Shown here piece after piece: positions 23,006-59,442 of a DNA stretch of 64,000 nucleotides. Position 1 is the first letter of the stretch. Every line of letters starts with the position of its first letter. The stretch comes from Escherichia phage vB_EcoM_ESCO10. The position numbers and the translations under genes are program-made. Where the stretch lies: sequence record OM386655.1, one strand, 5' to 3'. The notes beneath the pieces are model-generated. The model made no database searches and was not told the DNA's origin. It worked only from the letters and a program-made list of their open reading frames with translations.

Positions 23006-23012
23006 AGTAAAA
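22984..23012 (-). promoter_or_regulatory. sigma70-like early promoter
   Basis: minus GTTTTAC, 17 nt, TATTAT. Confidence 0.4.
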
Positions 23013-23348: not shown

Positions 23349-23389
23349 TTTATTCTCCAGTTTGTTTTCGTATTTGTTGGTACAAGTCT

Positions 23390-23418
23390 ATAGTATCATG
23401 CCTACTGGAGAAGTAAAC
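23390..23418 (-). promoter_or_regulatory. sigma70-like early promoter
   Basis: minus GTTTAC, 17 nt, TACTAT; flanked by 8-bp inverted repeat 23354-23361/23404-23411. Confidence 0.5.
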
Positions 23419-26935: not shown

Positions 26936-26965
26936 ACTATACCACAGTCCTACCATGGTGTAAAC
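26936..26965 (-). promoter_or_regulatory. sigma70-like early promoter with extended -10
   Basis: minus GTTTAC, 18 nt, TGgTATAGT; 9-bp inverted repeat 26927-26935/26946-26954 flanks -10. Confidence 0.45.
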
Positions 26966-29863: not shown

Positions 29864-30213
29864 TCTGTGGTGCTCCTGAAGTCTTTGGCAAAGGAATCGA
29901 AGGAGTTGTTGATTTGTTTTTCGACCAGTCCTGGCTTACTTGCCACCACGTGCGCCTTCTTCGAATCTTTACGGAGCTTTTCATTTTCTACCTTAATTTT
30001 ATCCATTCGGGCGTTCATTTCAGTAGTACGGAATTCAATATCAGCGTATTGGCCGTGAAGGTCTTCTAAAGCTTCAGCGTTCTGTTTAGCTGTTTGCTGG
30101 ATTGTTTTCAGTTCTTCAGTTAGCGTATCAATACGGCTTGATTGATACGAAATAAGACTGTAAGCACCTACTACAATGGCTCCAGCTAAAAGGTAAATAC
30201 TTAATTTAGACAT
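29860..30213 (-). CDS. i-spanin (N-terminal TM helix plus coiled coil), pseT.3-like
   Basis: MSKLSIYLLAGAIVVGAYSLISY TM segment then charged helical region. Confidence 0.6.
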   Translation of the reverse strand: MSKLSIYLLAGAIVVGAYSLISYQSSRIDTLTEELKTIQQTAKQNAEALEDLHGQYADIEFRTTEMNARMDKIKVENEKLRKDSKKAHVVASKPGLVEKQINNSFDSFAKDFRSTTE

Positions 30214-30701
30214 TTGTTAATAATCTCAATGATGTCATCACGTGACAGGGAGTTAATAAGAACAGTTTTAGGATTTTCACACTGGATTTTGTATGTTTCA
30301 AACATCACACACAATTCTTCAGAGGTATGGTAAGGACTTGAAATACCGAGGCGATTAGTTTTATCACCTAGTGGGTCGCAAATCAAATAGAAAGTGATGC
30401 CAGCGATTTTAACATTAGGTTGACTGATATTAATGAACACGTGGGCATCATATTTGGAAAGGTTATTCTGAAGGAATTCGACCATTGCATTAACAGCTTC
30501 AGGCATGGCCTCACGTTTCTCTTCAGTATAACGAGTAGAATATTCTTTTTGTTTAATTTTCTTTTTAGCATTACGAGCCATCGTAACACGAAGGTCGGTG
30601 AGGTAACCAACTGCACGAGAACCTTTGAAAACTTGGATACCGTCAGTTGAGTCACCATAAGCCTTAACAATCATTTCGTTAGTGATAAGTTGCATGTTCA
30701 T
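30201..30701 (-). CDS. Alc-like protein (by synteny next to rnlA)
   Basis: 166-aa ORF in T4 alc position; sequence not independently recognised. Confidence 0.4.
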   Translation of the reverse strand: MNMQLITNEMIVKAYGDSTDGIQVFKGSRAVGYLTDLRVTMARNAKKKIKQKEYSTRYTEEKREAMPEAVNAMVEFLQNNLSKYDAHVFINISQPNVKIAGITFYLICDPLGDKTNRLGISSPYHTSEELCVMFETYKIQCENPKTVLINSLSRDDIIEIINKCLN

Positions 30702-30708
30702 TTTGTTT

Positions 30709-30753
30709 TCTCCTCATTAGTTGATAGGCTTATACTAACACATCATGAGGAGA
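30709..30753. repeat. 9-bp perfect inverted repeat; one arm is the alc SD/start region, the other lies inside the promoter spacer
   Basis: TCTCCTCAT ... 27 nt ... ATGAGGAGA. Confidence 0.7.
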
Positions 30754-30760
30754 TGTAAAC
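30732..30760 (-). promoter_or_regulatory. sigma70-like early promoter for alc-like gene
   Basis: minus GTTTAC, 17 nt, TAGTAT. Confidence 0.45.
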
Positions 30761-31908
30761 TACTCTATCACAATTTCTTTCAAATATTTTTCAGGGATTT
30801 GGGCCTTATGATTTTTCAAGAACACAGAGTTAATCTGGTCTACGACAGTGTCATAATTAATACCGCCTGCGTACGCCTGCATAAGAATAGAGAACAAGCC
30901 AGGGAAGTCTTTGAGGATTAACTGTCCGGTAACGGCATAGTCCTTACGGTCACGCCCCTTGAGCTGAGAATATGCCGCTTCTAACAAGGCTAAAGATTGT
31001 TCTAAGTAGTCTAAATGGATACGTTCAAACGCATTGATTTTCTCGATGGCAAATGAATCCGTACTGAACAAACCTCGGAGGTCATCAGTTCCACCAGCCA
31101 CTACAACTTCAAACAACCGTTCGTTATTGTTAATGGAATCCTTAGTATGATGCAGTGCGCTATACCAAGCAGTTTTGAGTTTAAAGAACGTGCCATCTTT
31201 AAGTACAAAGATAAAGCCTTCAATACCCTCTTGTTTACGGATATCGCCAACAAAATCGCCTTCAGAGAGTTCGTAGCTTTTAACCAAATGCTTACGCAGA
31301 GCGCCATCTTTAAACAGTTCAGCGTAAGGGATATACTCGCCTGTTTCGTTATTACGAACGTTCAGTAAGATAAGGTTTGTTTCTTGGTAAGCCAACACAA
31401 TACGGTTAGTAGGGGCGACGTACTCAAGGTTGCATGTATATCCTGCTTTAGTAATTTCTTCTAAACGGGCAGCGAAGGCCTCGTTTTCAGGGAGACGAAG
31501 GAAACGTAAAGAATCATGCACCATTGATGAATGGATAGAGCCTTTAGATTTAACAGAAAGATACTGCCGGTCCATGAAGGTAGAAATCAAGGAACCATCT
31601 TCCTTAGCCATAACCAAGTCAATATTTTCCGGCGATAAATCCAGACCAATGGTCATAGGGTTTTCATCTAGATTAAAGAACTTTTGCATAGGACGAGCCG
31701 CAATACGTACGGGACCACTCTCGTCCATTTCAAACATAATGCCTCGGCACTCTAGTGCGCCGTCTTCCAACCAATCACTGTACGATGCATAGTTATAACT
31801 AAAGATGCGATAGTTGACTCCTAGCGCACTCTGGAAGTCTTTAAAGAAGAACTTAGATTTAGTCGAGTTTTTAACCAGGGCCATTAAGTTATCATATAAT
31901 TCAATCAT
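30760..31908 (-). CDS. rnlA: RNA ligase 1
   Basis: matches T4 Rnl1 (gp63): ...YRIFSYNYASYSDW...ECRGIMFE... Confidence 0.85.
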   Translation of the reverse strand: MIELYDNLMALVKNSTKSKFFFKDFQSALGVNYRIFSYNYASYSDWLEDGALECRGIMFEMDESGPVRIAARPMQKFFNLDENPMTIGLDLSPENIDLVMAKEDGSLISTFMDRQYLSVKSKGSIHSSMVHDSLRFLRLPENEAFAARLEEITKAGYTCNLEYVAPTNRIVLAYQETNLILLNVRNNETGEYIPYAELFKDGALRKHLVKSYELSEGDFVGDIRKQEGIEGFIFVLKDGTFFKLKTAWYSALHHTKDSINNNERLFEVVVAGGTDDLRGLFSTDSFAIEKINAFERIHLDYLEQSLALLEAAYSQLKGRDRKDYAVTGQLILKDFPGLFSILMQAYAGGINYDTVVDQINSVFLKNHKAQIPEKYLKEIVIE

Positions 31909-32326: not shown

Positions 32327-32340
32327 GGGGCCGAAGCCCC
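32327..32340 (-). promoter_or_regulatory. RNA hairpin GGGGC-UUCG-GCCCC between SD and denA start codon (split ribosome-binding site)
   Basis: AAGGA SD, 14-nt hairpin, UUAUUGCU, AUG; same hairpin sequence as upstream of gene 38. Confidence 0.5.
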
Positions 32341-58971: not shown

Positions 58972-58997
58972 AATCATCTCCATTAGTTGATAGGTCT

Positions 58998-59026
58998 ATA
59001 GTATCATGTCTAATAGAGATGTAAAC
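58998..59026 (-). promoter_or_regulatory. sigma70-like early promoter
   Basis: minus GTTTAC, 17 nt, TACTAT. Confidence 0.5.
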
Positions 59027-59412: not shown

Positions 59413-59442
59413 ATAGTAACACCGTCCTTGGTGTATGTAAAC
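59413..59442 (-). promoter_or_regulatory. sigma70-like early promoter
   Basis: minus GTTTAC, 18 nt, TACTAT. Confidence 0.45.

Follow-up and report, generated by a model that had tools for sequence, protein, structure and literature searches.

An early promoter spacer complementary to the Shine-Dalgarno sequence of alc in T4-type phages: a predicted block to translation of read-through RNA

Stem-loops at T4 promoters

In the arrangement typified by T4 gene e, the Shine-Dalgarno sequence (SD) and AUG are sequestered on long transcripts, and the block is relieved by initiation at a promoter that lies within the structure's 5' strand (PMC3014915). This type of control is documented for e, soc, 49, and I-TevI, and it has been predicted or shown for I-TevII, I-TevIII, Aeh1 mobE, and segB (PMC3014915). 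For gene e itself, a 100-fold translational effect is cited in the same review (PMC3014915). The proximal promoter in the gene e type is a late one (TATAAATA), and the block stops premature early expression.

A second kind of element consists of the promoter-early stem-loop (PeSL) cassettes of T4-like phages (Arbiol et al. 2010, PMC2839356; Comeau et al. 2014, PMC4122927). A PeSL is defined as a σ70-type early promoter with a stem-loop in variable position, followed by an SD and an ATG (PMC2839356; PMC4122927); the PST/T4 consensus for the promoter is TTTACW-N17-TAYWAT (PMC4122927). The stem-loops have been read as terminators or attenuators and as recombination sites (PMC2839356; PMC4122927), and one stem-loop of RB49 cut reporter expression as much as rrnB T1 (PMC2839356). 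No translational role is proposed in the PeSL papers, and the word "translation" has 0 occurrences in PMC2839356. Five positions of the stem are distinguished: upstream of the -35, over the -35, between the -35 and -10, over the -10, and just before the start site.

In T4, host transcription on cytosine-containing DNA is stopped by Alc. The T4 reviews PMC3014915 and PMC2988021 do not explain what restricts Alc synthesis to the first minutes after infection. The preliminary description of the present locus had presented alc as a gene different from the known cases of gene e-type control, and alc is indeed absent from the gene list in PMC3014915. Neither the alc hairpin, nor anti-SD arms at early promoters, nor a pattern of spacer-arm/SD pairing over T4 early promoters is mentioned in PMC3014915, PMC2988021, PMC2839356, PMC4122927, PMC1702504, or PMC1524935, although older T4 literature might describe the hairpin; in the time-resolved omics study PMC9697503, both occurrences of "alc" are in the reference list.

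Anatomy and predicted folding of the rnlA-alc junction

The window (the whole stretch of 64,000 nucleotides analyzed here) belongs to a phage of the genus Dhakavirus (JS98-like, T4-type); there are 51 matching records, of which vB_EcoM-VR5 is the best match, with 96% identity. The minus strand has a T4-like gene order, nrdB-denA-rnlA-alc-pseT.3-pseT.2...pseT. Pfam matches bear out the earlier assignment of an alc-like gene preceded by an open reading frame for T4 RNA ligase 1 (Table 1). The predicted Alc is 49% identical to T4 Alc, the two starts align, and alc is the name given to the homologous gene in the annotation of the closest relatives. The annotated start of alc varies among relatives: JS98 (L002 2206) uses a second ATG, 6 nt downstream, and in NHEP36 (L031 1438) the gene is annotated with an upstream extension overlapping the promoter. 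Within 30695-30701 of the window, the alignment with T4 Alc and the spacing from the SD favor 30701 as the start.

Read as transcript, the intergenic region (58 nt) is TAG(stop) TTTACA TCTCCTCAT GATGTGT TAGTAT AAGCCTATCAACTA ATGAGGAGA AAACAAA ATG, and an A/T-rich stretch, AAAAATATTTGAAAGAAATT, lies upstream of the alc early promoter. A promoter scan calls TTTACA-16-TAGTAT with TG upstream of the -10. The preliminary description had pointed to a perfect 9-bp inverted repeat with one arm over the alc SD and the other between the -35 and -10 of the proximal early promoter. The repeat proved to be exact, TCTCCTCAT being fully complementary to ATGAGGAGA, with GAGGAG inside the latter, and the coordinates of the promoter elements agree with the placement of the former. 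A repeat search returns the same perfect 9-bp core within a 19-nt pair of 79% complementarity (30709-27 / 30735-53).

Table 1. Positions of the features discussed (window numbering except for T4)
Feature	Position	Strand	Basis
Stop codon TAG of rnlA (RNA ligase 1); its G is the G of GTTTACA	30760-30762	-	open reading frame list; Pfam T4_Rnl1_C, RNA_lig_T4_1
-35 hexamer TTTACA of T4-type early promoter	30754-30759	-	promoter scan; alignment; PeSL consensus
5' (anti-SD) arm TCTCCTCAT, within promoter spacer	30745-30753	-	repeat search; spacer shuffles
Extended -10 TGT (30740-30738) and -10 TAGTAT (30737-30732), in hairpin loop	30732-30740	-	promoter scan
Predicted start site of promoter-proximal transcripts, 6-10 nt after -10	30722-30726	-	inferred from -10 position
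3' arm ATGAGGAGA with alc SD GAGGAG (30715-30710), 8 nt before ATG	30709-30717	-	
Full predicted read-through hairpin, 56 nt, -17.2 kcal/mol	30705-30760	-	folding
alc-like gene, 166 aa, inhibitor of host transcription; ATG 30701-30699	30201-30701	-	PF17527 ALC, E = 7.6e-40
Element of gene 30.8 homologue (ATG 23348): TTCTCCAGT (23412-23404), ACTGGAGAA (23361-23353)	23353-23417	-	PF06019
Element of 38-aa hydrophobic open reading frame (ATG 58971; -35 at 59025): ATCTCTATTAG (59020-59010), CTAATGGAGAT (58986-58976)	58976-59025	-	
Stem TGGTAGGACT...AGTCCTACCA	-35 at 26964	-	
Stem TTTGGTACAGGT/ACCTGTACCAAA, 12 bp	-35 at 23011	-	
-35 of T4 (NC_000866) cassettes with anti-SD arm: ndd.4 region, alc, 30.8, alt.-3, denV, regB, nrdC.8, motB.2	166806, 136335, 130309, 123092, 65412, 62796, 53942, 8217		

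Folding of both forms of the transcript gave the predicted outcome that the preliminary description had anticipated, with the SD in a stem on read-through RNA and free on promoter-started RNA, which lacks the upstream arm. The read-through RNA folds at a predicted -17.2 kcal/mol (z = -3.08; 2 of 200 shuffles fold as well) into an outer helix GUUU/AAAC (4 bp), the 9-bp core, and a small inner helix, and all of GAGGAG is paired in its minimum-energy fold. RNA begun at the predicted start site is predicted to be unstructured (0 kcal/mol), and any start within 30726-30722 leaves the ribosome-binding site open in the predicted folds. The hairpin is retained in predicted folds of RNA contexts of 101-199 nt, and in RNAs of these lengths opening the region from SD to AUG would cost 10.2-11.5 kcal/mol on read-through RNA versus 1.2-1.4 on promoter-started RNA. 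The validated hairpin of T4 gene e, used as a benchmark with the same method, gives 15.9-16.5 kcal/mol versus 1.9-4.7 for late-promoter RNA, and T4 alc gives 19.7-20.4 versus 3.7 kcal/mol. Both T4 hairpins, of alc and of gene e, are thus stronger than the one in the window, whose opening cost is nonetheless similar in size to that of gene e.

By itself, a 9-bp repeat is unremarkable, since perfect inverted repeats of 9 bp or more with loops of 3-40 nt number 24 in the window, compared to 10.6 +/- 3.1 in dinucleotide shuffles. The case rests instead on the geometry, a promoter spacer set against its own SD, and on comparative data. When the promoter spacer was paired with its own leader and SD, 0 of 500 and 0 of 300 shuffled spacers matched the observed duplex energy.

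As in the gene e type, the SD at this locus is held in a (here predicted) helix, and since the 5' strand of that helix is situated within or ahead of the proximal promoter, proximal transcripts lack it. The preliminary description had assigned it the logic of gene e; this stands for sequestration of the SD on the long transcript but not for the type of proximal promoter, which is late in gene e and a σ70-type early promoter here. Because the proximal promoter of alc is early, the temporal logic is reversed: the alc block would end expression after early promoters are shut off, unlike that of the gene e type. No late promoter TATAAATA is present within about 5 kb of the alc junction, and we therefore infer, rather than assign, the source of read-through into rnlA and alc.

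The preliminary description had omitted that the alc element is a member of the published PeSL class. Like a PeSL, it comprises an upstream stop codon, an AT-rich region, a σ70-like early promoter, a stable stem-loop, and an SD with ATG; the stem lies within or overlaps the promoter (here it flanks the -10); and the motif is repeated within a genome (14 cassettes in the window, 33 in T4), with apparent movement between loci. However, none of the published PeSL stems reaches the SD, whereas the alc stem spans from spacer to SD and has no U-tract. As modeled here, the alc element is a combination of PeSL anatomy and gene e logic, that is, an early-promoter version of the gene e mechanism.

An intrinsic terminator was also considered and rejected: the hairpin is missing from the terminator scan, and its tail is AAAACAAAA, which is not a U-tract. 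It resembles intrinsic terminators as a stable hairpin directly after a stop codon and differs from them in lacking a U-tract and in having a 27-nt loop and an only moderately GC-rich stem.

Two other features of the region may be recorded. At 30702-30713 (minus strand), GGAG with the A-rich AAAACAAAA matches the RegB/S1 cleavage context of T4 early mRNAs, whereas the GAGGAC of T4 alc does not. Farther upstream, at 32327-32340 (minus strand), the denA AUG is immediately succeeded by a UUCG-tetraloop hairpin, GGGGCUUCGGCCCC, with UUAUUGCUAU behind it. The hairpin has the appearance of a terminator, situated just past nrdB and inside the first denA codons, and might curb both read-through towards rnlA/alc and translation of denA.

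Pairing at other alc loci and at other early promoters

Junctions between rnlA and alc were taken from IMG/VR contigs and GenBank phages sampled across 1136 Alc-encoding records. In 14 of 20 representative alc loci, the minimum-energy fold joins the SD to the spacer arm; these loci carry 11 different arm sequences and come from Dhakavirus, Tequatrovirus, Gelderlandvirus, Karamvirus, Moonvirus, Jiaodavirus, Winklervirus, Kanagawavirus CIP9, the inferred Proteus phage phiP4-3, and two further lineages. GTTTACA is invariant in 15/15 aligned sequences (alignment A2, columns 1-7), and a block G-T-G-(T/A)-T-A before the -10 is conserved in the same alignment. The sequence right after GTTTACA varies by genus, yet is still complementary to that genus's own SD region. 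The arms (5'/3') are TCTCCTCAT/ATGAGGAGA in the window; AAGTCC(C)TCGT/ATGAGGACTT, with one G.U, in T4; TCCTCATTTTGTTG/CAACAAAATGAGGA, of 14 bp, in L012; TCTCCTCAG/CTGAGGAGA in L014; TCTCCGTTTAGTT/AACCAAACGGAGA in Gelderlandvirus; TCTCCATTTGGTT/AACCAAATGGAGA in Karamvirus and Moonvirus; TCCTCATCAG/CTGATGAGGA in Jiaodavirus; TCCTCATTTCGTT/AACGAAATGAGGA in Winklervirus; ATCCCATTTTGT/ACAAAATGGGGAT in Kanagawavirus CIP9; and ACCTCTCATTTT/AAAATGAGAGGT in L021.

Several lines of evidence indicate that this complementarity has been maintained. The duplex between a spacer and its own leader has an energy of -15 to -21.6 kcal/mol in 14 of 16 lineages, with 0 of 500 shuffled spacers as good, and in an alignment-free test in which spacers were swapped, the own leader beats every other lineage's leader in most lineages. 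In the 15-lineage MAFFT alignment A2, several 3' arms are out of register, since loops vary in length and the position of the helix relative to the -35 shifts by 1-2 nt. Pairs were therefore counted in A3, a MAFFT alignment of a seven-lineage subset that is in register by sequence alone. In A3, 96.9% of the cells are paired, and both partners vary in 4 of the 14 pairs (10 cells). Covariation scores 0.347, versus 0.180 +/- 0.033 in shuffles (0/500), and pairing falls to 31-55% when the partner is slid by 1-3 columns. A covariance model built from seven alc loci (R1) recovers the window element and the T4 alc, regB, denV, motB.2, alt.-3, and 30.8 elements, but serves as corroboration only, since it also scores reverse strands and promoter sequence. 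Rfam yields no match at the gathering score; the best, snoU6-53, is a chance hit with 20.2 bits versus a gathering score of 36. Judged from these comparisons, the alc helix is conserved and covarying across genera, a selected feature.

The T4 locus also bears on the strand concerned. The sense strand of T4 alc folds at -24.4 kcal/mol versus -15.4 for the antisense strand, and the T4 helix has a G.U where a relative (L024) has an A-U. Together these point to the sense RNA; outside T4, the energies do not discriminate between strands.

Not all alc loci conform. In Yersinia TG1-type phages (L013, L015), Edwardsiella phage PEi20 (L032), and Lazarusvirus (L036), equally strong hairpins form around the -10, and the 3' arm ends 1-12 nt before the SD. 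Among the alc loci folded, spacer-SD pairing is absent from the NHEP36 type (L011, L031) and from L022, which have a small stem inside the spacer only. In the Zedzedvirus Acinetobacter phage Henu6 (L035 1415-1457), a 10-bp hairpin, ACCCATTATG/CATAATGGGT, followed by the U-tract UUAUUCUUUUU, overlaps the -10; this element is best read as a terminator-promoter overlap rather than an SD mask. Gaprivervirus TH57 (L028 1381-1500) lacks a GTTTACA-type promoter within 120 nt upstream of alc, and its upstream context is unlike that of all other lineages. Predicted SD masking is thus common at alc, but not universal. Since hairpins end short of the SD or pairing is absent in some lineages, masking may not be the sole or primary selected function, and what is conserved may be a hairpin around the -10, not a masked SD. 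In addition, the leader is only ~24 nt long, which gives a 3' arm a high prior chance of touching the SD. The exceptions may, on the other hand, be cassette replacements, as cassettes appear to move between loci.

The same design recurs at other early promoters. An anti-SD arm is found in 3 of 14 early-promoter cassettes of the window (minus strand, GTTTAC-type) and in 8 of 33 in T4 (Table 1), where the eight hairpins range from -13 to -28 kcal/mol. In T4, pairing of -9 kcal/mol or stronger occurs in 24% of own spacer/SD pairs versus 7.4% of swapped pairs. The three window cassettes are those of alc, the gene 30.8 homologue, and a 38-aa open reading frame, and in each the arm comes directly after the -35. 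At the gene 30.8 homologue, the perfectly complementary arms enclose a 42-nt loop that holds the -10; the 5' arm follows and overlaps the -35, TTTACT, and the 3' arm contains the SD. T4 gene 30.8 has a weaker version of this design. The helix at the 38-aa open reading frame has 11 bp, including one G.U, and covers the SD. Stems of other PeSL-like cassettes in the window (minus strand; -35 at 26964, 23011, 38239, 29468, 14489, and 59441) lie in the spacer or flank the -10, and they stop short of the SD.

There are also signs of exchange between cassettes, and a different cassette stands at alc in some lineages. The T4 alc and alt.-3 cassettes (L042 36672-36736 and 23430-23493) are identical at 57 of 64 positions covering promoter, hairpin, and SD, alt.-3 being unrelated to alc. 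This near-exact duplication is what a mobile PeSL cassette would be expected to show. The NHEP36 alc cassette is similar to the window promoter at 59441, and the arms of the TG1 alc hairpin recur in the window promoter at 26964; in both cases, overall identity is only modestly above that of unrelated-cassette controls.

What the hairpin would do

The reading preferred here, to which we assign a probability of roughly 0.6, is that alc is translated from early-promoter transcripts and poorly, if at all, from read-through RNA. The rnlA-alc intergenic region would be a PeSL-type early-promoter cassette with its 5' arm in the spacer, directly after the -35, and with the alc SD as its 3' arm. Right after infection, polymerase firing at the predicted site of the alc early promoter would yield a ~24-nt unstructured leader with a free SD, and Alc would be made. 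RNA entering from rnlA or from further upstream, by delayed-early or middle read-through, would carry both arms. The hairpin would close once the SD is transcribed, raising the cost of 30S binding by ~9 kcal/mol, and on such RNA alc would be translated poorly, if at all.

Early promoters shut down within minutes (PMC3014915). Some of the middle RNA is early transcript extended further, and polarity or decay is avoided only through translation (PMC2988021). Once the early promoters are silent, upstream transcripts are still being extended, and Alc synthesis would stop with the early promoter and so be tied to its short life. The untranslated alc segment would then be open to Rho-dependent polarity or decay, and the hairpin could act as a U-tract-independent attenuator. 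Such polarity or decay would reconcile a translational block with the published view of PeSL stem-loops as attenuators.

That published view can also be held without a translational block: the stem-loop would be chiefly an attenuator or terminator for upstream polymerases and a recombination cassette, its overlap with the SD being incidental to the short leader. The element fits the published PeSL definition, and the RB49 stem-loop was as repressive as rrnB T1 (PMC2839356; PMC4122927). Consistent with this are the window cassettes with stems off the SD (several of the 14), the alc hairpins that avoid the SD in TG1, PEi20, and Lazarusvirus, the Zedzedvirus alc promoter overlapping a hairpin with a U-tract, and the signs of cassette exchange, strongest for T4 alc and alt.-3 and modest for NHEP36 and TG1. 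However, the alc hairpins of the Tevenvirinae lineages examined all end without a U-tract, in tails such as AAA, TATG, ACATT, and ATTAAA, and the hairpin is therefore not a canonical intrinsic terminator. In addition, the outermost pairs set a CCTC-type sequence exactly against the GAGG-type SD in 14 of 20 loci, even where the arm could directly follow the -10, and translation was neither tested nor discussed in the PeSL papers. An account that leaves translation aside is rather doubtful. A role in attenuation is in any case compatible with a translational block, since an untranslated leader could itself cause Rho-dependent attenuation.

A second alternative is translational coupling, in which the hairpin blocks independent initiation at alc and is melted by ribosomes ending at the rnlA stop, making alc expression proportional to rnlA translation. 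The footprint of a ribosome on a stop codon extends about 9-10 nt past it. With no more than 6 nt between the rnlA stop and the arm in the window, a ribosome ending there could melt the stem for a short time, since its footprint would take in all 4 outer pairs and 3-4 pairs of the 9-bp core; L012, Winklervirus, both Kanagawavirus phages, and TG1 share this 6-nt spacing (GAGTAG|TTTACA). Against this, T4, Karamvirus, Moonvirus, Jiaodavirus, and Gelderlandvirus have a gap of 9-11 nt and L014 one of ~20 nt, and in all of these the stem would stay closed; fraying of the end would also fall far short of opening the T4 stem (-24 kcal/mol). Coupling also leaves the placement of the arm inside the promoter unexplained. 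It is therefore plausible in the window phage but not in T4 or Karamvirus, with their 9-11 nt gap, and is unlikely as the general explanation.

Very unlikely is a role in RNA stability, whether by hiding the GGAG of the alc SD from RegB or by providing a protective 3' hairpin for processed rnlA mRNA. The window SD does have the GGAG followed by an A-rich run (GGAGAAAACAAAA) typical of RegB/S1 targets, RegB is known to spare GGAG within secondary structure, and the majority of middle and late transcripts resist it (PMC3014915; PMC1702504). On read-through RNA, the alc GGAG would lie in the stem and probably escape RegB. However, the SD of T4 alc, GAGGAC, lacks GGAG and yet has the strongest hairpin, and shielding has no obvious benefit by itself because the shielded RNA would still be untranslatable. 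Finally, chance complementarity without function is scarcely tenable: although ~10 perfect 9-bp inverted repeats are expected per 64 kb of shuffled sequence, this idea is already contradicted by the comparative data, namely compensatory changes over at least 11 arm variants, the failure of all 500 shuffled spacers (0/500) to attain the observed pairing, and the same design at other early promoters.

If the hairpin blocks translation of read-through RNA as predicted, Alc output would be hard-wired to one early promoter, with no repressor needed. This would join the RNA-structure paradigm of gene e with the PeSL cassettes, at early promoters and in the opposite temporal direction, and for the stem-loops so often found in T4-type early promoters it offers a function that can be tested. 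It is possible, though this is put forward tentatively, that spacer anti-SD arms constitute a general insulation rule of T-even-type phages, by which about a quarter of PeSL cassettes would be translated only from the transcripts of their own promoter. Were this true, PeSL stem-loops would have a translational function, the cassettes would be self-contained modules that can be safely shuffled, and the immediate-early shut-off would have a built-in translational part.
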